From positions 136,588,001 through 136,652,000 of the forward strand of contig CM059431.1 in NCBI GenBank assembly GCA_030390025.1: a DNA stretch of 64,000 nucleotides. The letters are read 5' to 3'. Made by a program: the position numbers and the translations under genes. Positions 40,663-63,800 of the stretch are shown in pieces. Source of the stretch: Squalus acanthias (taxonomy: Eukaryota). The notes under the pieces are model-generated. The model saw only the letters and a program-made list of their open reading frames with translations. It had not been told where the DNA came from and did no database searches. Numbering within the stretch: position 1 is the first letter of the stretch; the number at the start of each line of letters is the position of its first letter.

Positions 40663-41832
40663 TGTAGGCTTCGCTAAATCCCCCAGAAACTCGAACAGAG
40701 TCCTAAAGGGAGTGATTTTTGGACTTTTCATACAAACTTGGGATGATGGGGCCTAAGTGAGTGATTTGATGTAAAAACCTAAATATCAGGGTAGAAAAAA
40801 CCTGAGGAAACTGATTTTTTTGAATCTTACTGTTGGGAGAGTCACCGTTCACAGACACAAGCTGGGAGGGCCGTGGCCGGGCAGTGAACAAATCAAGCTG
40901 TCTGGGAATTGTTTACACTACAAATCCTACCCAGGTGCAAGAGACAAAGCAAAAAGTCAAAAACACATCCCCAGGGGCAAACAAGATGCTGGAAACCTAA
41001 AAACGATTCAATGACAATATAACTTCGATCACACAGTTTCATAGCCATTATCCCATCAAAAAAAACAACCAACTAGGTACCCTCAGAACAGATTTAAAAG
41101 CCCGCCAATAAACCTAGGATAATAGGGTGGAGATTTGGCGCGTAGATAAGGCTGTGTTTAAATCGGAAAACGATCAAGGCATGTTTAACACTGAGCAAAA
41201 ACCATCGGAACTGGCAAGCCCGCCAAAAACTAGACAATTGGACGAAGCAAGGTTCATTTTGCAAACAAAAGGAATTTGTTTTAGTAAGTGTTTTTTAGGC
41301 GCGAAAAGAAACAGTATAATTTGGAAGCCTGTGCCATAATCTCTCTCTCTTTCGGACTGGCTGACGACGCGGACACAGCTCTCTCCCTACTCCAGCAAAA
41401 CCTACCACAAGCCACGAGGAAGAAGGCCAGCACACAAGAAGGCACCTGAGCGACTGTCTGAGTGACCAACAGACACCTCGCAGCAACAAGGGCCTTACGG
41501 AGTCTTTTTAAACAAAAGACTCTATTATCCTGTCAAGAATTCGTTGGTGAGCATTATCCCTGATCACCTGAAACCAAAAGCCTAGCCGGATAGTGGGATC
41601 TTTGGGAGGGATAAGGTTTTGTATGATATATTGTCATTTCCCTCGCTTGTACCGTGTGTTCCCCGAATCTGTGTTTAAGTAATAAGTGTGTTTCAAGTTT
41701 GTTACCTTTTGCTTTTAATAAAGTAAAATTCTTTCATCAGAACCTGTTTACTGCAATTTTGTTCACAACCCCTAAATAAGTCCAAAGTCTAGGAACCGGA
41801 GGGGTGTGGGAGCGATTATGATACCCCCTACA
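40663..41832 (+). repeat. 5' LTR (1170 bp)
   Basis: Begins TGTAGG and ends CCTACA (6-bp terminal inverted repeat). Direct repeat of 47704-48885. AATAAA at 41717-41722. Confidence 0.95.
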
Positions 41833-41836
41833 TAAA

Positions 41837-41854
41837 TGACGACCGCGGCAGGAC
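41837..41854 (+). promoter_or_regulatory. Primer binding site, tRNA-Arg(UCG)-type
   Basis: TGACGACCGCGGCAGGAC lies 4 nt after the LTR. It matches 17/18 to TGGCGACCGCGGCAGGAC, the complement of the 3' end of vertebrate tRNA-Arg-TCG (recalled from memory). Confidence 0.85.
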
Positions 41855-41907
41855 TTTGGCGAAAGGGTTGTGAAGTAGTAAATGGTGGTTTTGAGTTGAG
41901 AACAAAA

Positions 41908-43659
41908 ATGGAAGAGAGAATGTCATCCTATGTATATAAAAAAGTAAATATCACCAAGAAATGGGTCCTCAGGCTGTTGCATGCTGAACGTCCTATGGAC
42001 GCTGCAGCTGCCTGGGCTGAGAGCAAGGAATACAATAAGTCTGTGCAGAAAGCCATATGGTTGGTCTGCTCCCACAAACAAATGCAGCTTATGGGGAAGC
42101 GCATTCAGGCTCTCACAGAAGAGCTAAAGGAAGAGAGCCAACTGTCCCGTGCCAGAGCAAAAGCAGGGGATAGGTTGTCAGCAGAGCTCGGCACAAAAGA
42201 TCAGGAACAGTCACAGATGCTGGAGGAACACCGTGCCAGTAAGGGATACCTCCAGTGTCAGGCCACCGAGGCCAAAAGTAGTGAACTGGCATTGCGGGAA
42301 GAGAACATCCGCCTTGCCAACCAATTAAGGGAACTCACAGAGAAGTGAAACGATGTTAAGGCAGCCTACAGAGTAGCCAGTACAAGGGAGTTTGAGGTAG
42401 GGGACCACGGCTCCTGTCAGAAGCAGATTGAGAGTCTGAACCTTGCTCTGTCCAAGACAAAAGGCATGTCGTGCCTGATAAGCCCGGGTGCGGCCCAAGC
42501 AGACCTGGAGGAGCAGGAGGAGACTGTTCGACTACCACGTGTGGCGCCAAGGAGAAGCTTGGTTAGGCAGCAGGAGGGGCAGACAATCTGTGAGGCTGAC
42601 AGGGAGTGCACACCAGCACCTGTGGCGCCGAGTTTTGACTCGGTCTGGCAACAGGGAGAGGGGGGCGAACCGATGCAGGAGAAGTCGGAGCCAGGGCCAA
42701 TGTGCCCAGCACGACAGCAAAAATTCGGCCCGCCCGCCGGTGGTGGAGGTCAGGGACCCCTTGAAAGTCAATTCTTGGCTCCCCACGTTACACAACAGCT
42801 TAGGGCTATGGTAAGCCACCTGAGTAAACTTACCCAAAAGGAAAACCCCTCAGTCCACTTCATGGAGGTGGAGCAATCAGCAGGCCTCAACCATTTTGAC
42901 GATGCCGAAATGGCAAAATTGCTCCTGTTCTCATTAGATGGCAAATTGTACCAGTCACTCTCGACTGAGAGCAAGAGAGGACAGAACGGATATGCTGCCG
43001 TCAGGGAGGAAGTTTTAGAGGCCATGGGAATGAATGAGGGAAGGCCTTTCTCCCGGATGGAGGAAACAGTGCAGCTCGCAGGGGACACCCCACAGGCTTT
43101 CGCAGGCAGGCTGTGGCCGGTGTACAGGGGTGCTTGTAATGGGGCTCTCGACAGGGCTAACCTGAACAGGGACGAGCTGGCCCACTGGCTCCGTAGCCTA
43201 GTGGCAAACAGCTTGCCACGAGTCAAAGCCAAGGCTGAGCTTTGGTTTGACCCAAGTGAGCCCCGGGTCACCGAGGAGGCAGTGGTCAGGCAACTGACCC
43301 TAGCCTACCGGAACGGTAGGGGAGCTGAAGACACCCCACCGAAAGGGAAGGTGCATGAGATAAAGCCCAGTCAGGATAAGAAGGAGTGGCACCAGGAAGG
43401 TGGTAAACCTTCCGACACGAAGCGTAACTGCTTCGGGTGCGGGAAGAGGGGGCATTGGAGAAAGGACTGTAGAAATCCCTGGAAGGATATGCTAACAAAG
43501 AATTCCCCAGCTTTCGCCCCAAAAGAAGAGGCACCGACCTCTTCCCCCACACTGGACACAATAGTAGCGGCCATCAGAGTCCTGCTTGGTGGCCCAGGGA
43601 AGTTAGCTACAGCCACTGGCGCATTCATTCCATCTGCCCCCCCTAAAGCAGACCTATGA
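41908..43659 (+). pseudogene. gag: Gag polyprotein (~583 codons) with N-terminal coiled coil and C-terminal CCHC zinc knuckle; one in-frame stop
   Basis: ORFs 41836-42348 and 42466-43659 share one frame, separated only by TGA at 42346-42348. AAAATGG start context at 41908. CFGCGKRGHWRKDC at 43429-43470. Confidence 0.88.
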
Positions 43660-44614
43660 CTAGAACCAGCGCAGGCTGTCTACCTGTGTTCCCCGGGATA
43701 CGATGTTAAGAAGGGGGTGGAGAATGTTGGGGAGATGTTTGGTGGACACCGGAGCTGCCAGCACGGTGGTCCATTCAGAAGACCTGACCAATTCACCCAG
43801 GTTTAACGGGGTCCCCTACAGTTTAATGGGAATCAAAGGGAACGAGCAGGCTGGGGCAATGTCCAAACGTTTGGACATAGATTTAGGATCCCTCCATACC
43901 ACGTGAGAGGGTAACCAAAAGGCGGACAAGTTGGCCAAGCATGGGGCCAGGGAAGGAGAGTTATGGGATCCCTATAAAGCAGGCCCGGTAGCTGCAATCC
44001 GGGACAAGGGAGGCACACAGGGGGTAGATTTGCCCCCGGACTTAAAGCAGGTCCAAGCCCAGAATCACGTCTTTAAGGCCAGCCTGGTAAAGAGAGAGAG
44101 TGGGGAGTCCCTAGAAGTTCCGTTCAGGGCAGAGGACGCGATTTTTAAACAGGTTCACTGGCAAGCAGCCAGTAACCTGGGGATTTTGTACTAGAAAAAT
44201 GGGCTGCTGTTAGAACCCCAGAGAACCCACGAGTGGGAGATTGACCAATGCAAACTGCTTAAACCTAAAAGGGAACAGCCGGCAAAGGTGGACTGCCCCC
44301 AAGTTAGAAATCGTCAGCCAGCCGCAGCTGTGGCAGACGCACAAGGTGAAGCGGGACGGACAGTGTGTTGTCTCACAGGAGAGAACACTCCACCGCTTAT
44401 GTGGGTCTCAAGCACACCCCCAGTGGCCAGAGCCCTAGAAGGTCTCCACGCACACCACAGCAAAGGCTACTGTGGCCACAGGTGTATCTGTTTCGAGGGT
44501 CCCACCCAAAGAGGGTTGCAATCCGAAGAAGAGCGCCCAAGAGCAGGGAGCGTTCTAAAGTTCGGGATTCCCAGCCTACAGCCTCCAACATTGAGGTTTT
44601 CACAGGAGAGGTAG
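43660..44614 (+). pseudogene. pol: Deleted pro-pol: retropepsin protease, RNase H C-terminal helix, probable integrase-flanking remnants; no RT, no DDE core
   Basis: CLVDTGAASTVV (DTG at 43745-43753). After TGA at 43904-43906 the same frame reads EGNQKADKLAKHGA. No YxDD, HHCC or DDE motif seen. Confidence 0.8.
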
Positions 44615-45033
44615 TACTGGGAGAAGAGAGAGAGAATGGTCCCCCACCTGCAGCCTCAGGCTGGGAGGAGCCCACAGATATGAACGAGGGTGCTGCAGCC
44701 ACAACAAAGGGGGTAGTGTGCGGCAGCACAGGACGCAGCTGGGATGTTAAGATACCCCCAGCGGTTTTGAGGAAGGCCTTCTGGGTTCGGCGGTACAGGC
44801 CGCACTACACCCAGGTGTACAAGCCATCCAGAGGCCACATAAGGCAGAGACTAAACAGGATTTAACCTGGCCATCCGAAGACGGGCGGCAAATGTACAGA
44901 ACTTTCGGTTTTAAGTAATTGCAGTTTTGGTGGTTATGGGTTATCATTAGTTTAGTTGTTTGTAGAGTTTTTTTTAAGTTTAAGGGCTTGATTAATGATC
45001 CAGCCAGAGAACCTTTCTGGGACATGGATATAT

Positions 45034-45054
45034 GTTTTGTGTGTGCCCCTACAG
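45034..45054 (+). promoter_or_regulatory. Putative env splice acceptor
   Basis: GTTTTGTGTGTGCCCCTACAG ends 13 nt upstream of the signal-peptide ATG at 45068. Confidence 0.5.
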
Positions 45055-45067
45055 AAAGGACTTCGGG

Positions 45068-47419
45068 ATGACAAGGTTTCTGCTCCTGCTCGCCCTGGTA
45101 GGGGTGAGCATCGGTGACCGAGGTGACGTGGAGGACTCCCACATCTATGGGTGCTCAGGAGTGAGAGCACCAGTCGTCACCGCAGGGGGTGGCGAGCGGG
45201 GAGTGGAGGAGCTCGCCATATACTTCCACGAGGGAAGGTGGCCAGGGTGGCTGGGGTCCAACTCTACTAAATACTCCAACCAGCCCGGGTTCACGTACGG
45301 GGAGGCCTCCCTCCCATGCCCCAGAATACAGGTCGTTGCCACAAGGGTCAGTGTCACCGAGGGGAAGCGTGTGTGCCTTACCTGTAAGGGACGAATTCCC
45401 CTGAATAGGTGGTGGTGGCTCAGGAAGCTGAGCAGGGACGCAGGGGACCATACAGCCGACTGGGAAAGATTAGGGAACGACACCCACCGGACAATCACAG
45501 GGACCCAGGGAGGAGTGAGTGTTTGTTGGGATAAGTGGTGGGAGTCGGAACAGGGAGTCTATGTTTGTATGTGGGGATCAGAGGAAGCCTGACCACAGGG
45601 GTATCCATCATCTTCTCCAGCCAATGGCAGGATGCCGGGGAGGGGATAGGGTGGGATTCTAGCCTGCATAGGTGCGTGGTCCCACACATTCCGGTCCCAG
45701 TTAATGCCACTGAACTCGTGGCACACACCCGAAAGCCCCTATCCACGACCCAGGTACCGAAAACCCTGGAAGAAGAGTGCCCTACCACCACTAAGGGACA
45801 AGGGAATGGGTTAGTCCTAGTACCAACCGAAAAGGTAATATACCAGGGGGTACACTATGCAGTAGCTTCAGTAATATTAAACCTCACCGAGGTATACTTA
45901 CCTGAGTGATGTCCTAAGGAGACGGAGCAACTGTACCAGGCCCTGCTAAAGGAAATGTTTAGGAAATGTTACGAATTTGATTTTGCCAATATAGACAAAG
46001 TAGAGCTATACAGAATACAACCTGAGAACCCTATGGGCACGGGTAGACAAAGAAGGGGAGCCTGGAATGATGTCTTCACTGCCTATAGTGCAGGGTCCTC
46101 TGTAATAAATAGCCTGGATGACATGGAATTACAGACACAGATAAATGTTTTAAAAACCCAGTTAAGAAAGATCCTGAAGTATGGGAACACCGTGGTAGGC
46201 TCAGAACTACATGAGGACCAAGCTATGACGGTTAATTTAAAGGAAATTATTGCAGAATTGGAAAGGCATGCCAAAACAGTAAATGCACTCATACGGGAGG
46301 ATAGGAATGCATCGGATCAGGCTGCACAGAATGAGGTGTGTGTGCTGTACGAGGCATGGTAGCTGGGCGAGGGCCGTAGCAACCTGGAGGATTTAAAGCA
46401 AGGTTTAGTCCCCTCCTGGATCAGCAACAAGCACCTTGCAGCCCTCCACCCGTTTAGTAATTCGCTGAGCCCATGCCAATTTCGTTTAGCCTCTGAAGCC
46501 TACCCTGTCCCAATAGATTGTGGGCGTTCAAATCACACTATCATGGGGATAGTAGTGAGAATGCCGGTCATGAATGGGACAGCCCGACCCGTACCGGTAT
46601 ACAGGGTGGAGAACATTGGAGTCATTCAAGGGGGTGCACAAATCCGTTTTACAGCGGTCCCACCTTATGTCATAAAGTGGGAGCACGCCATCACAGGTAC
46701 TGACCTCTCCGGGTGCGGAGCCGGGGTTCACACATAATACTGTGTCCCCAGCACTTGAACGCCTATTCCAAACCACAGTGCGGGTTTAAAGCTGCTGGCG
46801 CACGACTTATCAATTTTACCATGGAGGTGATGGCACACGGCCATTTTCCCCACAGGTAGCATATATAGGGGGTGGGACATATTGTGTCACCACAGGTGCG
46901 TCCCACTACCAGCATGGACACTTCTGGTGTCCGGTAAGTGACAGCAGTTTCTGCTTTAAACCCGAGGCAGAAGTTCAAGTGGCCCAGGAACGGATTGTGC
47001 CCATTTCTGAACCCTACACTGTTCACCTCACTGTAACAGAAAACATCACCAACCTGCAAAAGTATGTGACTTACTTTGGATGTAAAATTCCCCCTCTACC
47101 CAACATCTTACCACCCTACTTAAAGCTGTAGAGATTTCAAAAAAAACATTTCTACACCCTGGAACAGAAAACAGTTGTAATAGCGGCAGAGATTTTGGAT
47201 ATAGTAGTTCCACCCTGGTGGGATATTTTCGAGAATAAAGAGGTGCCTTCCTGGATCAGGATGGCTTTCCATCTTTTGGTGGTCTGCCAGCTCGGGATAA
47301 TTCTCTACCTGCTGTGTACAAAGTGCAGGGGAAGGGACGAGGAGCTCCGCTTCAGACACGAAGGGACTTGGGGAGTGCATCAAAATAAAGGCTATGGCCA
47401 GGGATGGAACGAACCTTGA
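45068..47419 (+). pseudogene. env: Envelope glycoprotein, class I F-type fusion protein with N-terminal Ig-like domain; several stops and frameshifts
   Basis: Signal peptide MTRFLLLLALVGVSIG. Furin site RQRR (46045-46056) followed by GAWNDVFTAYSAGSSVINS and a heptad-like helix. Cys-rich region, NxT/S sequons, and membrane-proximal PPWWDIF. TM segment MAFHLLVVCQLGIILYLLC (~47261-47317). Confidence 0.85.
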
Positions 47420-47692
47420 ATTTTGTCTTTTAATAAAAAAAAATTGTATGTGTGTTGTGTCATTTTTATGATGTGTATGATGTGTTTTTTCCAAGCTGTG
47501 CAGGGGTGTCGGACCCTCTCCGTGCTTGGATGTGAAATAAAGATTGATTCTTACCTGTATGTACCTGAAACACCACTTTCAAAAGGGGAATGAATGTTTG
47601 GGTTTTTAGTTTAGGTAATACAGGGGAAGGTTTGTTTTCGGGGATCGTAAATTTTGCACACCTGTTAATGATACTAATTCAGTTTTAGTATC

Positions 47693-47703
47693 AAAGTGGG
47701 GGA
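47693..47703 (+). promoter_or_regulatory. Polypurine tract
   Basis: AAAGTGGGGGA immediately before the TG of the 3' LTR. Confidence 0.85.
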
Positions 47704-48885
47704 TGTAGGCTTCGCAAAATCCCCCAGAAACTCGAACAGAGCCCTAAAGGGAGTGATTTTTGGACTTTCAATACAAACTTGGGATGATGGGGCCTAAGTG
47801 AAGTGAATTGATGTAAAAACCTAAAGATCAGGGTAGAAAAAACCTGGGGAAACTGATTTTTTTGAATCTTACTGTTGGGAGAGACACCTTTCACAGACAC
47901 AAGCTGCGAGGGGCGTGGCCGGGCAGTGAACAAATCAAGCTGTCTGGGAATTGTTTACACTAAAAATCCTACCCAGGTGCAAGAGACAAAGCAAAAACTC
48001 ACAAACACATTCAAATATGAATCCCAGGGGCAAACAAAAACTGGAAATCTAAAAACGATTCAATGACAATATAACTTCGATCACACAGTTTCACAGCCAT
48101 TATCCCATCAAAAAAACAATCAACCGGGTATCCACAGAACAGATTTAAATGCCCGCCAACAGACCTAGAACAATAGGGTGGAGATTTGGCACGTAGATAA
48201 GGCTGTGTTTAAATCGGAAAACGATCAAACCATGTTTAACACTGAGCAAAAACCATCGGAACTGGAAAGCCCGCCAAAAACTAGACAATTGGACGAAGCA
48301 AGGTTGATTTTGCAAATAAAAGGAATTCGTTTTAGGAAGGGATATTTGGGCGCAAAAAAGAAACAGTATAATTTGAAAGCCTGTGCCATAATCTCTCTCT
48401 CTTTCGGAAAGTGCTGACGACGTGGACACAGCTCTCACGCTGCTCCAGCAAAACCTACCACAAGCCACGAGGAAGAAGGCCAGCACGCAAGAAGAAACCA
48501 GAGCGACTGTCTGAGTGACCATCAGACACCTCGCAGCAACAAGGGCCTTACGGAGTCTTTTTAAACAAAAGACTCTAATACCCTGACAAGTATTCGTTGT
48601 TGAGCATTATCCCTGATCTCCTGAAACCAAAAACCTAGCCAGATAGTGGGATCTTTGGGAGGGATAAGGTTTTGTTTGATATATTGTCATTTCCCTCGCT
48701 TGTACCGTGTGTTCCCCGAATCTGTGTTTAAATAATAAGTGTGTTTCAAGTTTGTTACTTTTTGCTTTTAATGAAGTAAAATTCTTTCATCAGAACCTGT
48801 TTACTGCAATTTTGTTCACAACCCGTAAATAAGTCCAAAGTCTAGGAACCGGAGGGGTGTGGGAGCGATTAAGATACCCCTTACA
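47704..48885 (+). repeat. 3' LTR (1182 bp)
   Basis: TGTAGG...CTTACA. Colinear with the 5' LTR, with scattered substitutions and an ~11-bp indel near 48010. Confidence 0.95.
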
Positions 48886-51800
48886 TCTGTACAGCCCCAT
48901 CCTATTACCCATCTCTGTATAGTCCCATCCTATTATCCATGGCAGTACGGCCCCATCCTTTTAAACATCTCTGTACGGCCCCATCCTATTACCCATCTCC
49001 GTATGGCCCCATCCTATTACCCATCTCTGTACGGCCCCATCCTATTACCCATCTCTGTACAGCCCCATCCTATTACCCATCTCTGTACGGCCCCATCCTA
49101 TTACCCATCTCTGTACGGCCCCACCCTATTACCCATCTCTGTACGGTCCCATCCTATTGCCCATCTCTGTATGGCCCCATCCTATTACCCATCTCTGTAC
49201 GGCACGATCTTATTACCCATCTCTGTACGGCCCCATCCTATTACCCATCTCTGTACGGTCCCATCCTATTACAAATCTCTGTATGGCCCAATCATATTCC
49301 CCATCTCTGTACGGCCCCATCCTATTCCCCATCTCTGTACAGCCCCATCCTATTACCCATCTCTGTATGGCCCCATCCTGTTACCCGTCTCTGTACGGCC
49401 CCATCGTATTACCATCTCCGTACGGCCCACCCTATTACCCATCTCTGTACGGCCCCATCCTATTACCCATCTCAGTACGGCCCAATCCTGTTACCCATCT
49501 CATTGGACCCATCCTATTACCCATCTCTTTGGGTCCCATCCTGTTACCCATCTCTGTTCGGCCCCATCCTTTTACCCTTCATTGTACGGCTCCATCCTAT
49601 TACACATCTCTGTGCTTCCCAATCCTATTACCCCTCTCTGTACGCCCCATCCTATCACCAATCTCTGTACTGCCCCATCCTATTAGCCATCTCTGTACGG
49701 CCCCATCCTATTACCCATCTCTGTACAGCCTATCCTATCACCAATCTCTCTACTGCCCCATCCTATTATCCATCTCTGTACGGCCCCATCCTATTACCCA
49801 TCTCTGTACGGCCCCATCCTATTACCCATCTCTGTACGGCCCCACCCTATTACCCATCTCTGTACGGCCCCATCCTATTACCCATCACTGTACGGCCCCA
49901 TCCTATTACCCATCTCTGTACGGCCCCATCCTATTACCCATCTCTGTACAGCCTATCCTATCACCAATCTCTGTACTGCCCCATCCTATTACCCATCTCT
50001 GTACGGCCCCATCATATTACCCATCTCTGTACGTCCCCATCCTATTACCCATCTCTGTACAGCACCACCCTATTACCCATCTCTGTATGGCCCCATCCTA
50101 TTACCCAACTCTGTATGGTCCCATCCTACTACCCATCTCTGTACAGCCCCATCCTATGACCCATCTCTGTATGGCCCCATCCTATTACCCATCTCTGTAC
50201 GGCCCGATCCTATTACCCAACTCTATATGGCCCCACCCTGTTACCCATCTCTGTATGGCCCCATCCTATTACCCATCTCTGTACGGCCACATCCTATTAC
50301 CCATCTCTGTACGCCCCATCCTATTACCCATCTCTTTACGGCCCATCCTATTACACATCTCTTTACGGTCCCATCCTATTGCCCATCTCTGTACGGCCCC
50401 ATCCTATTACCCATCTCTGTACGGCCCCATCCTATTACCCATCTCTGTACGGCCCCACCCTATTACCCATCTCTGTACGGCCCCATCCTATTACCCATCT
50501 CTGTATGGCCCCATCCTATTACCCATCTCTGTAAGGCCACATCCTATTACCCATCTCTGTACGCCCCATCCTATTACCCATCTCTTTACGGCCCATCCTA
50601 TTACACATCTCTTTACGGTCCCATCCTATTGCCCATCTCTGTACGGCCCAATCCTATCACCAATCTCTGTGCGGCCCCATCCTATTACCCATCTCTGTAC
50701 AGCCGATCCTATCACCAATCTCTGTACTGCCCCATCCCATTACCCATCTCTGTACGGCCCCATCATATTACCCATCTCTGTACGTCCCCATCCTATTACC
50801 CATCTCTGTACAGCACCACCCTATTACCCATCTCTGTATGGCCCCATCCTATTACCCAACTCTGTATGGTCCCATCCTACTACCCATCTCTGTACAGCCC
50901 CATCCTATTACCCATCTCTGTATGGCCCCATCCTATTACCCATCTCTGTACGGCCCGATCCTATTACCCAACTCTATACTGCCCCACCCTGTTACCCATC
51001 TCTGTATGGCCCCATCCTATTACCCATCTCTGTAAGGCCCCATCCTATTACCCATCTCTGTACGCCCCATCCTATTACCCATCTCTATACGGCCCATCCT
51101 ATTACACATCTCTTTACGGTCCCAGCCTATAGCTCATCTCTGTACGGCCCCATTCTATTACCCATCTCTGTACGGCCCCATCCTATTACCCATCTATGTA
51201 CAGCCCCATCCTATTACCCATCTCTGTACAGCCCCATCCTATTACCCATCTCTGTACGGCCCCATCCTATTACCCATCTCTGTACGGCCCCATCCTATTA
51301 CCCATCTCTGTACAGCCTATCCTATCACCAATCTCTGTACTGCCCCATCCTATTACCCATCTCTGTACGGCCCCATCATATTACCCATCTCTGTACGTCC
51401 CCATCCTATTACCCATCTCTGTACAGCACCACCCTATTACCCATCTCTGTATGGCCCCATCCTATTACCCAACTCTGTATGGTCCCATCCTACTACCCAT
51501 CTCTGTACAGCCCCATCCTATTACCCATCTCTGTATGGCCCCATCCTATTACCCATCTCTGTACGGCCCGATCCTATTACCCAACTCTATATGGCCCCAC
51601 CCTGTTACCCATCTCTGTATGGCCCCATCCTATTACCCATCTCTGTAAGGCCCCATCCTATTACCCATCTCTGTACGCCCCATCCTATTACCCATCTCTT
51701 TACGGCCCATCCTATTGCACATCTCTTTACGGTCCCATCCTATTGCCCATCTCTGTACGGCCCCATCCTATTACCCATCTCTGTACGGCCCCATCCTATT

Positions 51801-54800
51801 ACCCATCTCTGTACGGCCCCACCCTATTACCCATCTCTGTACGGCCCCATCCTATTACCCATCTCTGTACGGCCCCATCCTATTACCCATCTCTGTACGC
51901 CCCATCCTATTACCCATCTCTTTACGGCCCATCCTATTACACATCTCTTTACGGTCCCATCCTATTACCCATCTCTGTACGGCCCAATCCTATCACCAAT
52001 CTCTGTACGGCCCCATCCTATTACCCATCTCTGTACAGCCTATCCTATCACCAATCTCTGTACTGCCCCATCCTATTACCCATCTCTGTACGGCCCCATC
52101 ATATTACCCATCTCTGTACGTCCCCATCCTATTACCCATCTCTGCACAGCACCACCCTATTACCCATCTCTGTATGGCCCCATCCTATTACCCAACTCTG
52201 TATGGTCCCATCCTACTACCCATCTCTGTACAGCCCCATCCTATTACCCATCTCTGTATGGCCCCATCCTATTACCCATCTCTGTACGGCCCGATCCTAT
52301 TACCCAACTCTATACTGCCCCACCCTGTTACCCATCTCTGTATGGCCCCATCCTATTACCCATCTCTGTAAGGCCCCATCCTATTACCCATCTCTGTACG
52401 CCCATCCTATTACCCATCTCTTTACGGCCCATCCTATTACACATCTCTTTACGGTCCCAGCCTATAGCTCATCTCTGTACGGCCCCATCCTATTACCCAT
52501 CTCTGTACGGCCCCATCCTATTACCCATCTATGTACAGCCCCATCCTATTACCCATCTCTGTACAGCCCCATCCTATTACCCATCACTGTGCTGCCCCAT
52601 CCTATTACCCATCTCTGTACAGCCCCATCCTATTACCCATCTCTGTACGGTCCCATCCTATTACCCATCTCTGTACGGTCCCATCCTATTACCCACCTCT
52701 GTACGGCCCCATCCTATCACCCATCTCTGTATGGCCTCATCGTATTACCCATCTCTGTATGGCCCCATAATATCACCCATCTCTGTACGGCCCCATCCTA
52801 TTACACATCTCTGTACGGTCCCATCCTATTACCCATCTCAGTATGGCCCCATCCTATTACCCATCTCTGTACGACCCATTCTATTACCCATCTCTGTACC
52901 GCACCATCCTATTACCCATCTCTCTCGTGCCCCATCCTATTACCCACCTCTGTACAGCCCCATCCTACTACCCATTTCAGTGCAGCCCCATCCTATTACC
53001 CATCTCTGTACGGCCCCATCCTATTACCCATCTCTGTACTGGCCCATCCTATTACACATCTCTGAACAGCATCATCCTATTACCCATGTCTGTACGGCCC
53101 CATCCTATTACCCATCTCTGTACGGCCCCATCCTATTACCCATCACTGTACGGCCCCATCCTATTACCCTGCTCTGTATGGCCCCATCCTATTACCCATC
53201 TCTGTACGGCCCTATCCTATTACCCTTCTCTGTACGGCCCCATCCTATTACCCATCTCTTTGGGCCCCATCCTATTACCCACCTCTGTACGGCCCCATCC
53301 TATTACCCATCTCTATAAGACACCATCCTATTACCCTTCATTGTACGGCTCCATCCTATTGCCCATCTCTGTGGTTCCCCATCCTATTACCCCTCTCTGT
53401 ACGCCCCATCCTATCACCCATCTCTATATGCCCCATCCTATTATCCATCTCTGTACGGCCCCCTCCTATTACCCATTTCTGTCTGGCCCCATCCTATTAA
53501 ACATTTCTATACGGCCCCGTCCTATTACCCATCTCTGTATGCCCCATCCTATCACCCATCTCTGTACGGCCCCGACCTATTACCCATCTCTGTCTGGTCC
53601 CATCCTATTACCCATCTCTGTACGGCCCCATCCTATTACCCATCTCTGTATGGTCCCATCCTATTACCCATCTCTGTACGGCCCCATCCTATTACCGATC
53701 TCTGTACAGCCCCATCCTATTACCCATCTCTGTACGGCCCCATTCTATTAACCATCTCTGCACAGCCCCATCCTATTACCCATCTCTGCGCTGCCCCCTC
53801 CTATTACCCATCTCTGTGCTGCCCATCCTATTACCTATCTCTGTACGGTCCCATCCTATTACCCATCTCTGTATGGCCCCATCCTATCACCCATCTCTGT
53901 ACGGCCCCATCCTGTTACCCATCTCTGTACAGCCCCATCCTATCACCCATCTCTGTACGGCCCCATCCTATCACCCATCTCTGTACGGTCCCAGCCTGTT
54001 ACCCATCTCTGTACGGCCCCATCCTATTACTCATCTCTTACGGCCCCATCCTATCACCCTTCTCTGTACGGCCCCATCCTATTACACATCTCTGTACGGC
54101 CCCATCCTATTACCCATCTCTGTACGGCTCCTTCCCATTACCCATCTCTCTAGTGCCCCATCCCATAACCCATCTCTGTACTGCCCCATCCTATTACCCA
54201 TCTCAGTACGGCTCCATCCTATCACCCATCTCTGTACAGCCCCATCCTATTACACATCTCTGTACGGCCCCATCCTATTACCCATCTCTGTACGGCCCCA
54301 ACGTATTACCCTTCTCTGTACGGCTTAATCCTATTACCCAAATTCTGTACAGCCCCATCCTATTACCCATCTCGGTACGGCGCCATCCTATTACACATCT
54401 CTGCCCGGCTTTATCCTATTTCCCATCTCTGTACGTCCCCATTCTATTACCCGTCTCTGCCTGGCCCCATCCTATTACCCATTTCTGTACTGCCCCATCC
54501 TATTACCCATCCCTCTACGGCCCCCTCCTATTACCCATCTCTGTATGGCCACAACCTATTACCAATCTCTGTACGGCCCCATCCTATTACCCATCTCTGT
54601 ACGGACCCCTCCTATTACCCATCTCTGTATGGCCCCATCCTATTACCAATCTCTGAAATGCCCCATCCTATTACCAATCTCTGAAAGGCCCCAACCTATT
54701 ACACATCTCCGTATGACCCCATCCCATTATCCATCTCTTTGGGCCCCATCCTATTACCGTTCCCTGGACGGCTCCATCCTATTACCCATCTCGATATGTC

Positions 54801-57800
54801 CCCATCCTATTACCAAGCTCTGCACGGCCCCATTATATTACCCATCTCGATATGGCCCCATCCTATTACCCATCTCTGTACCGCCCCGTCCTTTTACCCA
54901 TCTCTGTACGCCCCATCCTATCACCCATCTCTGTACGGCCTCGACCTATTACCCATCTCTGTCTGGCCCCATCCTATTACCCATCCATGTACGGCCCCAT
55001 CCTATTCCCCATCTCTGTACAGCCCCATCCTATTACACATCTCTGTACAGCCCCATCCTATTACCCATCTCTGTACGGCCCCATCCTATTATCCATCTCT
55101 GTACAGCCGCATCCTATTACCCAACTCTGTACGGCCCCATCCTATCACCCATCTCTGTATGGACCCATCCTATTACCCATCTCTGTACGCCCCATCCCAT
55201 TACCCATCTCTGTATGGCCGCATCTCATTATCCATCTCTGTACAGCCCCTTCCTATTACCCATCTTTGTACGCCCCTTCCTATTACCCATCTATGTACGC
55301 CCCATCTTATTACCCATCTCTGTACGGCCCCATTCTATTAACCATCTCTGTACGGCCCCATCCTATTACCCATCTCTGTACGGCCCCATCCTATTACCCA
55401 TCTCTGTACTGCCCCATCCTATTACCCATCTCTGTACGGCCCCATCCTATTACCCATCTCTGTACGCCCCATCCTATTACCCATCTCTGTATGGACCCCT
55501 CCTATTACCCATCTCTGTATGGCCCCATCCTATTACCAATCTCTGAAATGCCACATCCTATTACCAATCTCTGAAAGGCCCCAACCTATTACCCATCTCT
55601 GTACGACCCCATCCTATTACCCATCTCTTTGGGCCCCTTCCTATTACCGTTCTCTGGACGTCCCCATCCTATTACCCATCTCGATATGGCCCCATCCTAT
55701 TACCCAGCTCTGCTCGGCCCCATTATATTACCCATCTCGATATGGCCCCATCCTATTACCCATCTCTGTACCGCCCCGTCCTATTACCCATCTCTGTACG
55801 CCCCATCCTATCACCCATCTCTGTACGGCCCCGACCTATTACCCATCTCTGTCTGGCCCCATCCTATTACCCATCTATGTACGGCCCCATCCTATTCCCC
55901 ATCTCTGTACAGCCCCATCCTATTACCAATCTCTGTACAGCCCCATCCTATTACCCATCTCTGTACGGCCCAATCCTATTATCCATCTCTGTACAGCCGC
56001 ATCCTATTACCCATCTCTGTACGGCCCCATCCTATCACCCATCTCTTTATGGCCCCATCCTATTTCCCATCTCTGTACGCCCCATCCCATTACCCATCTC
56101 TGTATGGCCGCTTCTCATTATCCATCTCTGTACAGCCCCTTCCTATTACCCATCTTTTTACGGCCCCATCCTATTACCCATCTCTGTACGGCCCCATCCT
56201 ATTACCCATCTCTGTACGGCCACATTCTATTAACCATCTCTCTACGGCCCCATCCTATTACCCATCTCTGTACAGCACCATCCTATTACCCATCTCTGTG
56301 CTGCCCCATCCTATTACCCATCTCTGTGCTGCCCATCCTATTACTTATCTCTGTACGGTCCCATCCTATTACCCATCTCTGTGTGGCCCCATCCTATCAC
56401 CCATCTCTGTACGGCCCCATCCTATTACCTATGTCTGTACGGCCCCATCCTATTACCCATCTCTGTACAGCCGCATTCTATCACCCATCTCTGTACTGTC
56501 CCATCCCATAACCCTTCTCTGTACGGCCCCATCCTATCACCCATCTCTGTACAGCCCCATCCTATTCCACATCTCTGTACGGCCCCATCCTATTACCCAT
56601 CTCTGTACGGCCCCAACGTATTACCCATCTCTGTATGGCTTAATCCTATTACCCAAATTCTGTACAGCCCCATCCTATTACCCGTCTCGGTACGGCTCCA
56701 TCCTATTACCCATCTCTGCCCGGCTTTATCCTATTTCCCATCTCTGTACGTCCCCATTCTATTACCCATCTCTGCCTGACCCCATCCTATTACCCATCTC
56801 TGTACTGCCCCATCCTATTCCCCATCTCTGTACGGCCCCCTCCTACTACCCATCTCTGTATGGCCACAACCTTTTACCAATCTCTTACGGCCCCATCATA
56901 TTACCCATCTCTGTACGGCCCCCTGTTATTACCCATCTCTGTATGGCACCATCCTATTACCAATCTCTGAAAGGCCCCAACCTATTACCCATCTCGATAC
57001 GACCCCATCCTATTACCCATCTCTTTGGGCCCCATCCTATTACCGTTCTCTTGTCGGCCCCATCCTATTACCCATCTCGATATGGCCCCATCCTATTACC
57101 CAGCTCTGCTCGGCACCATTCTATTACCCATCTCGATATGGCCCCATCCTATTACCCATCTCTGTACTGCCCCATCCTATTCCCCATCTCTGTACGGCCC
57201 CCTCCTACTACCCATCTCTGTATGGCCACCACCTATTACCAATCTCTTACGGCCCCATCATATTACCCATCTCTGTACGGCCCCCTGCTATTACCCATCT
57301 CTGTATGGCACCATCCTATTACCAATCTCTGAAATGCCCCATCCTATTACCAATCTCTGAAAGGCCCCAACCTATTACCCATCTCGATACGACCCCATCC
57401 TATTACCCATCTCTTTGGGCCCCATCCTATTACCGTTCTCTTGTCGGCCCCATCCTATTACCCATCTCGATATGGCCCCATCCTATTACCCAGCTCTGCT
57501 CGGCCCCATCCTATTACCCATCTCGATATGGCCCCATCCTATTACCCATCTCTGTACGGCCCCATCCTATTACCCATCTCTGTATGGCACCATCCTATTA
57601 CCCATCTCTGTACGGCCCCATCCTATTACCCATTGCTGTTCTACCCCTCCTATTACCCATCTCTGTATGGCCCCATCCTATTACCCATCTCTGTATGGCA
57701 CCATCCTATTACTCATCTCTGTACGGCACCATCCTATTACCCATCTCTGTTCTACCCCATCCCATTACCCATGTCTGTACGGCCCCATCCTACTATCCAT

Positions 57801-60800
57801 CTCTGTACGCCCCATCCTATCACCCAACTCTGTACGGCCCCGAACTATTACCCATCTCTGTCTGGCCCCATCCTATTACCCATCTATGTACGGCCCCATC
57901 CTATTCCCCATCTCTGTACAGCCCCATCCTATTACCCATCTCTGTACAGCCCCACCCTATTACCCATCTCTGTACGGCTCCATCTTATTATCCAGCTCTG
58001 TACAGCCCCATCCTATTACCAATCTCTGTACGGCCCCATCCTATCACCCATCTCTGTATTGCCCCATCCTATTACCCATCTCTGTACGCCCCATCCTATT
58101 ACCCATCTCTGTATGGCCGCATCCCATTATCCATCTCTGTACAGCCCCTTCCTATTCCCCATCTTTGTACGCCCCTTCCTATTACCTATCTATGTACGCC
58201 CCATCCTATTACCCATCTCTGTACGGTCCCATCCTATAACCCATCTCTGTACGGCCCCATCCTATTACCCATCTCTGAACGGCCCCATCCTATTACCCAT
58301 CTCTGTAAGGCCCCATTCTATTAACCATCTCTCTACGGCCCCATCCTATTACCCATCTCTGTAAAGCCCCATCCTATTACCCATCTCTGTGCTGCCCCAT
58401 CCTATTACCCATCTCTGTACGGTCCCATCCTATTACCATTCTCTGTATGGCCCCATCCTATCACCCATCTCTGTACGGCCCCATCCTATCACCCATCTCT
58501 GTACGGCCCCATCCTATTACCCATCTCTGTACGGCCCCATCCTATTACCCATCTCTGTACAGCCCCATCCTATCACCCATCTCTGTACTGTCCCATCCTG
58601 TTACCCATCTCTGTACGGTCCCATCCTATTACCCATCTCTGTACGGCCCCATCCTGTTACCCATCTCTGTACGGCACCACCCTATTGCCCATTTATGTAT
58701 GGCCCCATCCTATTACCCATCTCTGTACGGCCACATCCTACTACCCATCTCTGTACGGCCCCATCCTATTACCCATCTCTGTACGGCCCCATCCTATTAC
58801 ACATCTCTGTACGGCCCGATCCTATTACCCAACTCTGTACGGCCCCATCCTGTTACCCATCTCTGTACGGTCCCATCCTACTACCCATCTCTGTACAGCC
58901 TCATCCTATTACCCATCTCTGTACGGCCCCATCCTATTACGCATCTCTGTACGTCCCCATCCTATTACCCATCTCTATACGGCACCACCCTATTACCCAT
59001 CTCTGTATGGCCCCATCCTATTACCCAACTCTGTACGGTCCCATCCTACTACCCATCTCTGTACAGCCCCATCCTATTACCCATCTGTGTACGGCCCGAT
59101 CCTATTACCCATCTCTGTACTGCCCCACCCTATTACCCATCTCTGTATGGCCCCATCCTATTACCCAACACTGTACGGTCCCATCCTACTACCCATCTCT
59201 GTACAGCCCCATCCTATTACCCATCTCTGTACGGCCCGATCCTATTACCCATCTCTGTACGGCACCACCCTATTACCCATCTCTGTATGGCCCCATCCTA
59301 TTACCCAACTCTGTACGGTCCCATCCTACTACCCATCTCTGTACAGCCCCATCCTATTACCCATCTCTGTACGGCCCCATCCTATTACCCATCTCTGTAC
59401 AGCCCCATCCTATTACCCATCTCTGTACGGCCCCATCCTATTATCCATCTCTGTACGCCCCATCCTATTACCCATCTCTGTACAGCCACATCCTATTTCC
59501 CATCTCTGTACGGCCCATCCTATTACCCATCTCTTTACAGCCCATCCTATTACACATCTCTTTACGGTCCCATCCTATTACCCATCTCTGTACGGTCCCA
59601 TCCTATTACGCTTCTCTGTACGGCCCGATCCTATTACCCACCACTGTACGGCCCCATCCTATTACCCATCTCTGTACAGCCCCATCCTATCACCCATCTC
59701 TGTATGGCCCCATCCTATTACCCAGCTCTGTATGGCCCCATACTATCACCCATCTCTGTACGGTCCCATCCTATTACCCATCTCAGTACGGCCCCATCCT
59801 ATTACCCATCTCAGTACGGCCCCATCCTATTACACATCTCTGTACGGTCCCATCCTATTACCCATCTCAGTACGGCCCCATTCTATTACCCATCTCAGTA
59901 CGGCCCCATCCTATTACCCATCTCTGTACCGCACCTTCCTATTACCCATCTCTCTAGTGCCCCATCCCATTACCCATCTCAGTATGGCCCCATCCTATTA
60001 CACATCTCTGTACGGTCCCATCCTATTACCCATCTCAGTACAGCCCCATCCTATTACCCATCTCTGTACGGCCCATCCTATTACCCATCTCTGTACGGCC
60101 CATCCTATTACCCATCTCTGTACCGCACCTTCCTATTACCCATCACTCTAGTGCCCCATCCCATTACCCATCTCAGTACGCCCCCATCCTATTACACAGC
60201 TCTGTACGGTCCCATCCTATTACCCATCTCAGTACAGCCCCATCCTATTACCCATCTCTGTACGGCCCATCATATTACCCATCTCTGTACAGCCCCATCC
60301 TATTACCCATCTCTGTACGCCCCATCCTATTACCCATCTCCGTACGATCCCATCCTATTGCCCATCTCAGTACGGCCCCATCCTATTATCCATCTCTGTA
60401 CAGCCCCATCCTATCACCCATCTCTGTACGGCCCCATCCTATTACCCATCTCTGTACGATCCAACGTATTACCCATCTCTGTACGGCTTAATCCTGTTAC
60501 CCAAATTCTGTACAGCCACATCCTATTACCCATCTCTGTACGGCCACTTCCCATTACCCATCTCTCTAGTGCCCCATCCCATAACCCTTCTCTGTTCGGC
60601 CCCATCCTATTAACCATCTCTCTACGGCCCCATCCTATTACCCATCTCTGTGCAGCCGCATCCTATTACCCATCTCTGTGCTGCACCATCCTATTACCCA
60701 TCTCTGTGCTGCCATCCTATCATCCATCTCTGTATGGCCCCTTCCTATTACCCATCTATGTACGGCCCCATCCTATCACCCATCTCTGTACTGCTCCATC

Positions 60801-63800
60801 CTATTACCCATCTCTGTACGGCCCCATCCTATCACCCTTCTCTGTACGGCCCCATCCTATTACCCATCTCTGTACGGCCCCATCCTATTACTCATCTCTG
60901 TACGGCCACTTCCCATTACCCATCTCTATATTGCCCCATCCCATAACCCTTCTCTGTACGGCTCCATCCTATCACCCATCTCTGTACGGCCCCATCCTAT
61001 TACCCATCTCTGTACGGCCCCAACGTATTACCCATCTCTGTACGGCTTAATCCTATTACCCAAATTCTGTACAGCCACATCCTATTACCCATCTCTATAC
61101 GGCCACTTCCCATTACCCATCTCTCTAGTGCCCCATCCCATAACCCTTCTCTGTACGGCCCCATCCTATTAACCATCTCTCTACGGCCCCATCCTATTAC
61201 TCATCTCTGTACAGCCCCAGCCTATTACCCATCTCTGTGCTGCACCATCCTATTACCCATCTCTGTGCTGCCCATCCTATTACCCATCTCTGTATGGCCC
61301 CATCCTATTACCCATCTCTGTACAGCCCCATCCTAATACGCATCTATTTACGGACCTATTCTATTACCCATCTCTGTACGGTCCCATCCTATTACCCATC
61401 TCTGTATGGCCCCATCCTATTACCCATCTCTGTACAGCCCCATCCTAATATGCATCTCTTTACGGACCTATTCTATTACCCATCTCTGTATGGCACCATC
61501 CTATTACACATCTCTGTATGGCCCCATCCTATTAACCATCTTTGTATGGCCCCAACCAATTACCCATCTCTGTTCTACCTCATCCTATTACCCATCTCTG
61601 TACGGCCCGATCCTATTACCCATCTCTGTACGGCCCAATCCTATTACCCATCTCTGTACGGCCCCATCCTATTACCCATCTCTGTACGGCCCCATCCTAT
61701 TACCCATCTCTGTACGGCTCAATCCTATTACCCATCTCTGTACAGCCCCATCCTATTACCCATCTCTGTACGGCCCCATCCTATAACCCATCTGTGTAGG
61801 GCCCCATCCTATTACCCATCTCAGTACGGCCCCATCCTATTACCCATCTCTTTATGGTCCCATCCTATTACCCATCTCTGTACGGCCCCATCCTATTACC
61901 CATCTCAGTAAGGCCCCATCCTATTACCCATTTCTGTGCTGCCCCATCCTATTACCCATCTCTGTGCTGCCCTTTCTATTACCCATCTATGTACGGTCCC
62001 ATCCTATTTCCCATCTCTGTACGTCCCCATCCTAATACCCATCTCTGTACAGCCCCATCCTATTACCCATCTCTGTACGGCCCCATCCTATTACCCATCT
62101 CTGTACGTCCCCATCCTACTACCCATCTCTGTACATCCCTATCCTATTACCCATCTCTGTACGGCCCCATCCTATTACCCATCTCGATATGACCGCATCC
62201 TATTACCCATCTCTGTACAGCCCCATCCTAATACGCATCTCTTTACCGACCCATTCTATTACCCATCTCTGTACGGCCCCATCCTATTACCCATCTCTGT
62301 ATGGCATCATCCTATTACACATCTCTGTACGGCCCCATCCTATTACCCATCTCTGTTCTACCCCATCCTATTACCCATCTCTGTATGGCTCCATCCTATT
62401 ACCCATCTCTGTATGGCACCATCCTATTAATCATCTCTGTACGGCCCCATCCTATTACCCATCTCAGTAAGGCCCCATCCTATTACCCATCTCTGTACGG
62501 CCACATCCTATTACCCATCTCTTTATAGTCCCATCCTATTACCCATCTCTGTATGGCCCCATCCTTTGTCCCATCTCTGTGCAGCCCCATCCTATTAACC
62601 ATCTCTGTGCAGCCCCATCCTATTACCCATCTCTGTGCAGCCCCATCCTATTAACCATCTCTGTGCAGCCCCATCCTATTACCCATCTCTGTGCAGCCCC
62701 ATCCTATTAACCATCTCTGTGCAGCCCCATCCTATTACCCATCTCTGTACGGCCCCATCCTATTAGCCATCTCTGTACAGCCCCATCCTATTACCCATAT
62801 CTGTACGGCCCCATCCTATTACCCATCTCTGTACAGCCCCATCCTATTACCCATCTCTGTATGGCCCCATCCTATTAGCCATCTCTGTACGGCCCCACCC
62901 TATTACCCATCGCTGTACGGCCAAATCCTATTACCCATCTCTTACGGCCCCATCCTATTACCCAACTCTGTACGGCCCCATCCTATAACCAATCTCTGTA
63001 CGGCCCCACCCTATTACCCATCTCTGTACGGCCCGACTCCAATTACCCATCTCTGTACGGCCCCATCCTATTACCCATCTCTGTATGGCCCCATCCTATT
63101 AGCCATCTCTGTACGGCCCCACCCTATTACCCATCTCTGTACAGCCCCATCCTATTCGCCATCTCTGTACAGCCCCATCCTATTACCCATCTCTGTACGG
63201 CCCCATCCTATTACCCATCTGTGTATGGCCCCATCCTATTACCCATCTCTGTTCTGCCCCATCCTATTACCCATCTCTTTACGGCCCCATCCTATTACCC
63301 ATCTCTGTACGGCCCCATCCTATTTCCCATCTCTGTACGGCCCCATACTATTACCCATCTCTGTACGGCCCCATCCTATTACCCATCTCTGTACAGCCCC
63401 ATCCTATTACCCATCTCAGTGCGGCCCCATCCTATTACCCATCTCTGTACGGTCCCATCCTCTTACCCTTCTCTGTACGGCCCCATCCTATTACCCTTCT
63501 CTGTACAGCCCCATCCTATTACCCTTCTCTGTACAGCCCCATCCTATTACCCTTCTCGGTATGGCCCCATCCTATTTCCAATCTCTGTACGGCCCCATAC
63601 TATTACCCATCTCTGTACGGCCCCATCCTATTACCCATCTCTGTACAGCCCCATCCTATTTTCCATCTCTGTACGGCCCCATCCTATTACCCATCTCTGT
63701 ACGGCCCCATCAAATTACCCATCTCTGTACGGCCCCATCCTATTACCCTTCTCTGTACGGCCCCATCCTATTACCCTTCTCTGTACAGCCCCATCCTATT

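Follow-up and report, generated by a model that had tools for sequence, protein, structure and literature searches.

Among the endogenous retroviruses (ERVs) of lower vertebrates, two described groups come closest to the element reported here. Lokiretroviruses combine a dual ribonuclease H (RNase H) with an F-type envelope protein (Env), according to the description in PMC7947760. The foamy-like ERVs (FLERVs) of sharks and frogs are represented by CmiFLERV and XtrFLERV; in the account given in PMC5512871, the frog XtrFLERV falls within the shark CmiFLERVs and pol is the only gene detectable in both. For the catshark “ERV-Spuma,” a 2023 study reports that no Gag or Env domain was found (PMC10699275). 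Here we analyze a stretch of 64,000 nucleotides from the genome of the shark Squalus acanthias (GenBank assembly GCA_030390025.1, contig CM059431.1, positions 136,588,001 to 136,652,000; hereafter the window), in which an initial annotation, made from the sequence alone, had taken the segment 40663..48885 for a lokiretrovirus-like provirus with an F-type Env. The segment is a provirus, and it is a defective, dead copy. With good though not complete assurance, we assign it to a simple, enveloped and very abundant retrovirus family that has an F-type Env and is not lokiretroviral, and within that family to a pol-deleted subfamily. Taken alone, this copy is unremarkable and dead; it is the family that is noteworthy. 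All features below lie on the + strand, and their coordinates are those of the window.

The env gene (45032..47419) was delimited by tblastn with P0002, an uninterrupted relative, and is predicted from fold matches to encode an F-type class I fusion protein. Three frame changes (near 45565-45601, 46716-46743, and 46847-46898) and three in-frame stops (45907, 46360, and 47129) disrupt it. A furin-type cleavage site, RQRR (46045..46056, in the open reading frame [ORF] 45910-46362), stands between an F2-like surface subunit (SU) and an F1-like transmembrane subunit (TM). The membrane anchor, WIRMAFHLLVVCQLGIILYLLC (47252..47317, in the ORF 47132-47419), corresponds to helix 741-767 in the model of the relative. 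Because the window gene is broken, P0002 was used for the fold tests; it is a natural copy of 796 amino acids, 87-96% identical to the window env pieces. In P0002 the RQRR at residues 339-342 is the sole R-x-K/R-R site, and its membrane anchor, by reading of the translation, spans approximately residues 742-765, so the furin site lies approximately 400 codons upstream of the anchor, as the initial annotation had estimated. Every motif string that it quoted is likewise present in the window env, and the uninterrupted copy P0002 contains no CX6CC motif.

We modeled P0002 with AlphaFold2 from an alignment of 33 sequences. The mean predicted local distance difference test score (pLDDT) is 58.6; the model is of good quality over residues 250-320 and 430-660, its N-terminal 245 residues are poorly modeled, and it contains a long helix at residues 394-456. 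A Foldseek search of the PDB gave 221 matches with an E-value of at most 1e-3, and all the listed rows are F proteins of paramyxo- or pneumoviruses. The best match is F of human parainfluenza virus 3 (hPIV3; E 1.1e-10, probability 1.00, approximately 490 columns). VIA-align, which is independent of Foldseek and was run against 48,161 chains, placed F of Newcastle disease virus (NDV) at the top (Z 12.0, root-mean-square deviation 17.9, 371 residues aligned), and its rows 1-13 are all F proteins or foamy virus Env (8rm1, Z 8.4; 8rm0, Z 7.9). In BFVD the matches of the model include baculovirus F, paramyxovirus F0, and arli-, lispi-, and chu-like virus glycoproteins; among retroviruses they include Env of walleye epidermal hyperplasia virus 1 (WEHV-1; E 2e-10), Env of walleye dermal sarcoma virus (WDSV; E 2.4e-9), and gp130 of feline foamy virus (E 3.5e-5). 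The predicted structure has the features of F-type subclass Ib: a domain I/II/III core, a refolding helix past the furin site, a heptad repeat B, and a membrane anchor. The proposal of an F-type env is confirmed at the level of the predicted fold. The N-terminal 226 residues of SU, folded alone with 13 sequences, gave no confident fold (mean pLDDT 36). An Ig-like head is hinted at by a weak Ig_3 match in SU (E 0.0024 with the window ORF pieces, E 0.036 with the whole Env) and by the source name of one shark relative. A weak match to Baculo_F (E 0.0011) occurs in a chimeric protein from a shark.

Profile-profile comparison gives a second line of evidence. Our Env profile was compared with those of two retroviral genomes from IMG/VR and with two sets of reference Envs. 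L071 (IMGVR_UViG_638277100_000001) is a 12.7-kb cyclin-bearing epsilon-type retrovirus with an env ORF at 5962-9648, and L021 (IMGVR_UViG_638276818_000001) is a 10.7-kb retroviral genome with an env ORF at 6131-9532; their Envs (1229 and 1134 amino acids, respectively) belong to no Pfam family. The best match is the Env of L071 (96.0% probability, E 4.3e-9, 193 columns), followed by nine foamy Envs, in their TM part (84.8%, E 6.5e-6, 213 columns), and by the Env of L021 (83.6%, E 8.2e-6, 344 columns, collinear through the furin site). Ten gamma/delta-type Envs, taken as a control, reached 1.2% (E 0.045, 21 columns). These matches bear on the initial annotation's premise that an F-like Env is the hallmark of lokiretroviruses. 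Lokiretroviruses do have such an Env, and that part of the premise stands; but the Envs of foamy viruses and of the walleye epsilonretroviruses match as well, and the present family, itself not lokiretroviral, has an F-type Env, which therefore cannot serve as a lokiretroviral hallmark. A literature search found no paper stating that the epsilonretrovirus Env is F-type, and none describing an F-type Env in an ERV of cartilaginous fishes. Wang, Chen and Cui reportedly described a cartilaginous-fish endogenous foamy virus (EFV) in J Virol in 2023, and that paper may bear on the latter point.

Which hosts carry related envelopes? A HMMER search of 1.84 billion representatives identified 47 Env relatives. 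The 10 that were looked up include the sharks Mustelus, Chiloscyllium, Heterodontus, and Scyliorhinus and the frogs Pelodytes, Mantella, and Xenopus tropicalis; further matches come from the skate Rhinoraja and the sawshark Pristiophorus. The nearest named Env and Pol relatives are from skate, sawshark, sevengill, and other sharks, and the host of shark or ray type that had been proposed is very probably correct. Three gene models (P0004, P0005, and P0042, from Pristiophorus japonicus and Heterodontus francisci) fuse Env pieces to Niban 1-like, cadherin-related 5-like, and fbxo15 sequences. They are probably annotation chimeras over ERV insertions.

Is the family lokiretroviral? We compared reverse transcriptase (RT) plus connection sequences in maximum likelihood trees. 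A quick build used 44 rows picked from 108 hidden Markov model (HMM) matches. The careful tree has 35 rows, nine having been dropped (five Ty3/gypsy, two foamy, one gamma, and one delta), and a second has 36 rows, with L071 added. The IMG/VR reference genomes were labeled as foamy, gamma, delta or epsilon type by their own Pfam content. Lokiretroviruses are represented by P0083, a natural lokiretrovirus Pol from Oryzias melastigma, whose RT resembles the Xenopus consensus of Wang & Han; this fish is starred as lokiretrovirus-positive in their supplement (PMC7947760). In both careful trees the retroviruses split from nine Ty3/gypsy rows with support of 100/100, and P0083 branches as the sister group of all the remaining retroviruses (100/99), which include the shark family. 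The shark pair, X. tropicalis, one relative, and a coelacanth with three frogs lie outside a crown made up of L021, foamy viruses, and class I (91/78 with 35 rows, 92/94 with 36 rows); the RT of L021 branches between foamy viruses and class I. Uniting the shark, frog, and coelacanth sequences with the lokiretrovirus costs 29.3 log-likelihood (lnL) units and is rejected by the approximately unbiased (AU) test (p = 0.00044). A tree of 31 integrase (IN) sequences again has the lokiretrovirus outside (100/99), and its crown of class I, L021, and foamy viruses excludes the shark and frog rows (100/96). Judged by its RT, the family is a branch or grade with frog and coelacanth elements, placed after the lokiretroviruses and outside the foamy/epsilon/gamma/delta group.

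The lokiretroviral identity of the initial annotation is thus rejected by the RT tree and the AU test, and also by the RT motif, which in the shark family is LPQGFHNSP, the form also found in foamy viruses and in gamma-, delta-, and epsilonretroviruses, versus a Ty3-like xPFGYxN in lokiretroviruses. We consider it very unlikely that the family is a lokiretrovirus, or a sister of the lokiretroviruses, in a new host class. The family shares with lokiretroviruses the dual RNase H and the F-type Env; however, the tether and second RNase H, present in the full-length Pols P0006 and P0007, are common to all retroviruses, so they do not discriminate. The coiled coil at the N-terminus of Gag recalls the smc/coiled-coil part of the lokiretroviral Gag; some lokiretroviruses have an smc-like gene or domain before gag. 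This N-terminus is rich in coiled coil, but it matches no SMC family in Pfam. An IN HMM of the shark and frog sequences scores the lokiretroviral IN of P0102, a natural protein spanning tether, RNase H, and IN, at 385 bits, versus at most 276 for Ty3/gypsy, approximately 230 for gamma-, and approximately 180 for foamy viruses, and the IN tree allows a union with the lokiretrovirus (AU p = 0.27). Env points the other way. There are approximately 340 residues before the furin site in the shark family and approximately 110 in the Loki-Xla consensus, and PF00523 is unmatched here, whereas an E-value of 2.2e-7 to this family is reported for lokiretroviral Env (PMC7947760). The host range does so too. 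None of the six chondrichthyan genomes in the screen of Wang & Han was recorded as lokiretrovirus-positive (PMC7947760), and two of these six, S. torazame and C. punctatum, hold Env relatives of the shark family, which is consistent with their RT screen having assigned this lineage to another group. In the S. acanthias genome, the best matches to lokiretroviral RT are 33-39% identical, a figure that, with 44 of 18,679 candidates scored, is a floor and does not mean absence.

The comparison with foamy viruses is closer. Here the family would be a foamy-like ERV, sister to or on the stem of Spumaretrovirinae, and the elasmobranch counterpart of CmiFLERV, XtrFLERV, and the cartilaginous-fish endogenous foamy virus, whose F-like Env had gone unrecognized. 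We regard this as possible, though the odds are against it. In a set of 5.8 billion proteins, the closest Pols are a Logan record (81% identity), frogs including X. tropicalis (41-45%), and a coelacanth (40%); the natural lokiretrovirus proteins P0083 and P0102 are also among the hits from that set. The frog XtrFLERV, as said above, belongs among the shark CmiFLERVs. Among solved structures, the nearest RTs are those of xenotropic murine leukemia virus-related virus/murine leukemia virus (XMRV/MLV; E 1e-67), foamy virus (1e-62), and Ty3 (3e-43), and the nearest retroviral IN is that of prototype foamy virus (PFV; E 3.6e-33). In the RT tree, grouping the shark, frog, and coelacanth sequences with foamy viruses lowers the likelihood by a mere 1.56 lnL and is not rejected (AU p = 0.19), nor does IN reject such a union (p = 0.13), and the Env profile matches the foamy TM region and the solved foamy Env structures. 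Nevertheless, the best RT trees and the IN tree join foamy viruses to L021 and class I, with the crown supports given above. Other features differ as well. Gag has a CCHC knuckle and lacks Gag_spuma matches, and Spuma_A9PTase is unmatched at E-values up to 0.01, while three foamy genomes scanned alike as a control match both families. The primer-binding site (PBS) is complementary to tRNA-Arg, versus tRNA-Lys in most foamy viruses (PMC5512871). Gag and pol share a frame and are separated by a single stop. Only 284 bp separate the 3' end of env from the 3' long terminal repeat (LTR), so there is no room for genes of the tas/bet type. The Env signal is short and of cleavable type, in contrast to the long foamy leader peptide, and the extra domain precedes the F2-like part on its N-terminal side; the foamy receptor-binding domain, by contrast, is described as lying between N-SU and C-SU, before the furin site. 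In Env, PF03408 (Foamy_virus_ENV) is unmatched, the homology being confined to remote profiles.

Since the best Env profile match is an epsilon-type virus, one might ask whether the family is an epsilon-like (class I) ERV. This seems to us highly improbable. Besides that match and the BFVD matches to the two walleye viruses, the CCHC knuckle of Gag and the arrangement of gag and pol in one frame across a stop resemble L071 and gammaretroviruses. In the RT trees, however, L071 lies inside class I (97/91; 97/96), and the shark family lies outside the crown (92/94) that holds L071, P0078, and gammaretroviruses. Furthermore, the shark IN lacks the MLVIN_C domain that is present in L071, L032, L033, L021, and gammaretroviruses. 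The RT tree of full-length relatives, which the initial annotation had advised as a check, places them neither in the class I clade nor in Ty3/gypsy (100/100). An envelope-carrying, errantivirus-like Ty3/gypsy retrotransposon has next to no chance of being the right description. An F-type Env is common in errantiviruses (10.1101/2023.10.26.564294), and the IN region has some Ty3/gypsy flavor: an Integrase_H2C2 domain, a C-terminus of GPY/F type, weak SH3_Tf2-1 and Integrase_p58_C matches, and Ty3 as the top PDB sequence match of the IN-containing query. But the element has the tether and a second RNase H of PF00075 type, its RT groups with retroviruses against the nine Ty3/gypsy rows, and, according to the same preprint (10.1101/2023.10.26.564294), no vertebrate ERV is homologous to the invertebrate elements.

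We are interested in how the window copy relates to the rest of the family. We searched the 3.71-Gb assembly with a 401-residue stretch of env, read through its stops with X. The first look gave 9218 candidates; the 103 that were scored are all 88-100% identical to the query. Sixty-six of the 103 are stop-free in the matched stretch, and 14 of the 103 lie in stop-free frames of at least 799 amino acids. For eight copies with long open env frames, we examined the 10 kb upstream of env. A complete protease (PR)-RT-tether-RNase H-IN order is present in three (L016, L019, and L020). Two others (L013 and L015) align collinearly, at 94%, with the window copy through the positions of its pol deletions, which assigns the window copy to a pol-deleted gag+env subfamily present at several loci. 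The remaining three (L014, L017, and L018, on contigs C8, C20, and C9) represent another gag subfamily, more divergent, with env coming almost immediately after gag. Their gag is approximately 70-80% identical in DNA to the window gag, they are without pol, and they carry a partial duplicate of the gag N-terminal region between gag and env. In L014 and L018, a single stop separates gag from pro-pol, which continues in the frame of gag. The full-length Pols P0006 and P0007 contain the Pfam domains RVT_1, RT_RNaseH_2/RT_RNaseH (tether), RNase_H (PF00075), Integrase_H2C2, and rve. The ratio of nonsynonymous to synonymous substitutions (dN/dS) in env has a median of 0.35 and a range of 0.19-0.51 (28 pairs from eight copies; of 11 loci, three were left out for lack of an env frame of at least 560 amino acids), which indicates that env was under purifying selection while the family diversified.

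The architecture of the window copy is that of an LTR provirus, as had been claimed. The 5' LTR (40663..41832; 1170 nucleotides, detected through the direct-repeat families D8-D12) and the 3' LTR (47704..48885), its direct repeat, both read TG...CA. The pair measures 1.17-1.18 kb and is 94.1% identical in a pairwise alignment (1098 of 1167 aligned positions), with a Kimura two-parameter (K2P) divergence of 0.062 and seven gap events; the alignment took the 3' LTR to 48884, one base short of its end at 48885. The PBS (41837..41854) starts four bases past the 5' LTR. It reads TGACGACCGCGGCAGGAC in the window copy and TGGCGACCGCGGCAGGAC in other copies of the family. The latter is exactly reverse-complementary to the final 15 bases of a tRNA-Arg(TCG) gene from this genome followed by CCA, and the window PBS is therefore complementary at 17 of 18 positions. 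The 3' end of the tRNA gene, read directly, is ...GTCCTGCCGCGGTCG; a pattern of its T-loop plus the PBS complement occurs 435 times in the genome and a reversed control 0 times, and ARAGORN calls tRNA-Arg(tcg) at both of the two loci examined. A purine-rich run resembling a polypurine tract (PPT), AAAGTGGGGGA (47693..47703), as read from the sequence, abuts the 3' LTR. Taken together, the paired LTRs, the PBS, and the purine run show that the LTR/PBS/PPT architecture is real. The tRNA-Arg(TCG) genes themselves occur in long tandem arrays with a period of approximately 1,623 bp, on contig C26 at approximately 38.99-41.88 Mb (L062-L064) and also at L061; in L062 a tRNA-Ser(GCT) gene shares the repeat unit.

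The gag gene of the window copy (41836..43659), as delimited from ORFs, has a coiled-coil-rich N-terminal part, a capsid-like part, and one CCHC knuckle (43426-43473; zf-CCHC E 0.0026). It contains a single in-frame stop (42346-42348) and, over 492 amino acids, shares 89% identity with its counterpart in a full-length copy. Its ATG (41836-41838) overlaps the first bases of the PBS, so there is no leader between the PBS and gag; the same overlap is found in L013, L015, L019, and L020, and in one copy (L016) the gag frame is open back into the LTR. Three pieces of pol follow. The first is a protease stump (43739..43900) with the active-site motif LVDTGAAS (RVP E 0.0097; tblastn to PR residues 11-64 of P0006, 59% identity). 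The second (43907..44161), which aligns with residues 756-849 of P0006, consists of the RNase H C-terminus, EGNQKADKLAK, running into the first part of integrase. The initial annotation had correctly recognized this RNase H remnant: EGNQKADKLAK, which begins at 43907, aligns with the RNase H C-terminus of full-length copies (...AEGNHQADMLTKEGAS). The third (44144..44757) contains the integrase C-terminal remnant and a C-terminal extension of the pol frame (P0007 residues 744-888 and 883-995). RT, the tether, most of RNase H, and the integrase core are missing, and approximately 3.05 kb of pol is gone relative to the full-length copy L020. In Pfam, the 13 ORF pieces of the window have only the weak CCHC, RVP, and Ig_3 matches. 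The pol frame runs approximately 170 residues past the integrase C-terminal domain (P0007 approximately 830-998, in L020; 44419-44757 in the window). This extension is rich in proline and arginine, matches no family, and is 87% conserved in the window copy.

A number of observations weigh against the reading of the element as a provirus of a separate retroviral family with an F-type Env. No Pfam family reaches significance with P0002, and PF00523 and PF03408 are unmatched at E-values up to 10; the same two families are unmatched in 18 Env relatives at E-values up to 1. A sequence search of the PDB with P0002 gave no match, and a profile search gave no fusion protein. The Env model is only moderately confident, 347 of its 796 residues having a pLDDT below 50. 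In the RT trees the monophyly of shark, frog, and coelacanth is weak (82/73 with 35 rows, unresolved with 36 rows), and neither the lokiretroviral nor the foamy union is rejected by the IN AU tests. The trees hold one lokiretroviral sequence each and were built without alpha-, beta-, and lentiviruses, the snakehead retrovirus, and the published FLERVs. Both the dN/dS set and the copies compared upstream of env were picked for long open frames and form a non-random sample. Finally, the window copy lacks a target-site duplication (GAAAG before the 5' LTR versus TCTGT after the 3' LTR), and its flanks are two different satellite arrays, one with a 43-bp period up to 40662 and one with a 28-bp period from 48886. 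The missing duplication and the differing satellites raise the possibility that the copy arose by recombination between two proviruses or insertions, in which case its LTR divergence would not date it. We therefore do not rely on the age of approximately 12-31 Myr that follows from a K2P of 0.062 at 1-2.5e-9 substitutions per site per year, the rates quoted in PMC10699275. As for the setting, the provirus sits exactly at the junction of the two unrelated arrays (1-40662 and 48886-64000). The 43-bp array has a 129-bp higher-order period and positive GC skew, and the 28-bp array has strongly negative GC skew.

How might a complete member of this F-type retroviral family work? A full-length provirus has LTRs of 1.2 kb, which enclose gag (coiled coil, capsid, CCHC), PR, RT, tether, RNase H, IN, and env. 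Reverse transcription would be primed by tRNA-Arg(TCG), and Gag-Pro-Pol could be made by read-through of the gag stop, to judge from the single frame and single stop in L014 and L018. Env is predicted to consist of a signal peptide, an N-terminal SU part of approximately 240 residues, an F2-like strand/helix segment, and the furin site RQRR, followed by an F1-like part of approximately 400 residues with heptad repeat A, domains III/I/II, heptad repeat B, and the membrane anchor. By analogy with F and foamy Env, furin would prime the protein and the N-terminal SU part would engage the receptor; heptad repeat A would then extend the long helix, a hairpin would form, and the membranes would fuse. 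The pol-deleted copies were presumably mobilized in trans by the enzymes of full-length members, although segmental duplication is an alternative.

Given its thousands of copies, its many uninterrupted env frames, and the purifying selection on env, the family may have spread through infection in recent times, and it might still circulate in elasmobranchs. In lower vertebrates, no fewer than four branches of retroviruses carry F-type envelopes (the shark family, foamy viruses, walleye-type epsilonretroviruses, and lokiretroviruses), and the shortcut from an F-like env to a lokiretrovirus is removed. As several of these branches are deep, the F-type envelope is possibly ancestral. It is tempting to hypothesize that the shark, frog, and coelacanth elements are the earliest surviving branch of Retroviridae once the lokiretroviruses had split off, with an Env homologous to those of epsilon-, foamy, and lokiretroviruses, and that the gamma-type Env, with its CX6CC motif and immunosuppressive domain (ISD), is a later replacement; we put this forward tentatively and think it somewhat doubtful. 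The natural, uninterrupted env genes of the family make the origin of retroviral envelopes testable by structure determination and fusion assays.

The family can be set beside several known systems. Paramyxoviral and pneumoviral F proteins (e.g., NDV F, 3MAW; hPIV3 F, 1ZTM) resemble the modeled Env in the F2-/F1-like fold, in the order of domains, and in the position of the furin site before the refolding helix. They differ in sequence (8-16% identity), and the shark Env has approximately 240 extra N-terminal residues and belongs to a reverse-transcribing element. Lokiretroviruses, including zebrafish BHIKHARI, resemble it in the layout of tether and RNase H, in an F-type Env that bears a furin site, in the N-terminal coiled coil of Gag, and in their aquatic and amphibian hosts. 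They differ in forming a separate RT branch with its own motif and in an Env that matches PF00523 and has a short F2, compared with 340 residues of SU in the shark family; moreover, the BHIKHARI Gag is described with a glycine-rich C-terminus, while the shark-family Gag has a CCHC knuckle. Among epsilon-type and related viruses, L071 and L021 have the Envs with the best profile homology, likewise without a Pfam family, and WDSV and WEHV-1 have those with predicted-structure matches. The Envs of L071 and L021 are larger (1134-1229 amino acids), and their Pols have MLVIN_C and fall inside or next to class I.

The likeness to foamy viruses concerns both Env and Pol. Foamy gp130 (8RM0/8RM1; Fernandez et al. 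2024, PMC11468914) is described with an F-like I/II/III core and a long central helix, and its profile homology to the shark Env extends over 213 TM columns. It is approximately 985 amino acids long with its leader peptide and has an inserted extra domain, whereas the shark Env has approximately 800 amino acids and an N-terminal extra domain. The shark and frog FLERVs (CmiFLERV and XtrFLERV, PMC5512871; ERV-Spuma.0-Sca, PMC10699275) are, as described there, alike in their cartilaginous-fish hosts, in having a frog relative, and in a foamy/gamma-like Pol. Their Gag and Env escaped recognition by sequence search, just as Pfam fails on the shark-family Env. This comparison is by description and not by sequence; the trees here do not place the shark lineage with foamy viruses, and the CCHC-bearing gag, the tRNA-Arg PBS, and the F-type Env are features defined here. 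The shark family may well be the elasmobranch face of the published FLERV lineage. If the two are the same, a lineage known from pol alone now has a gene map, with a CCHC gag, a tRNA-Arg PBS, and an F-type Env.

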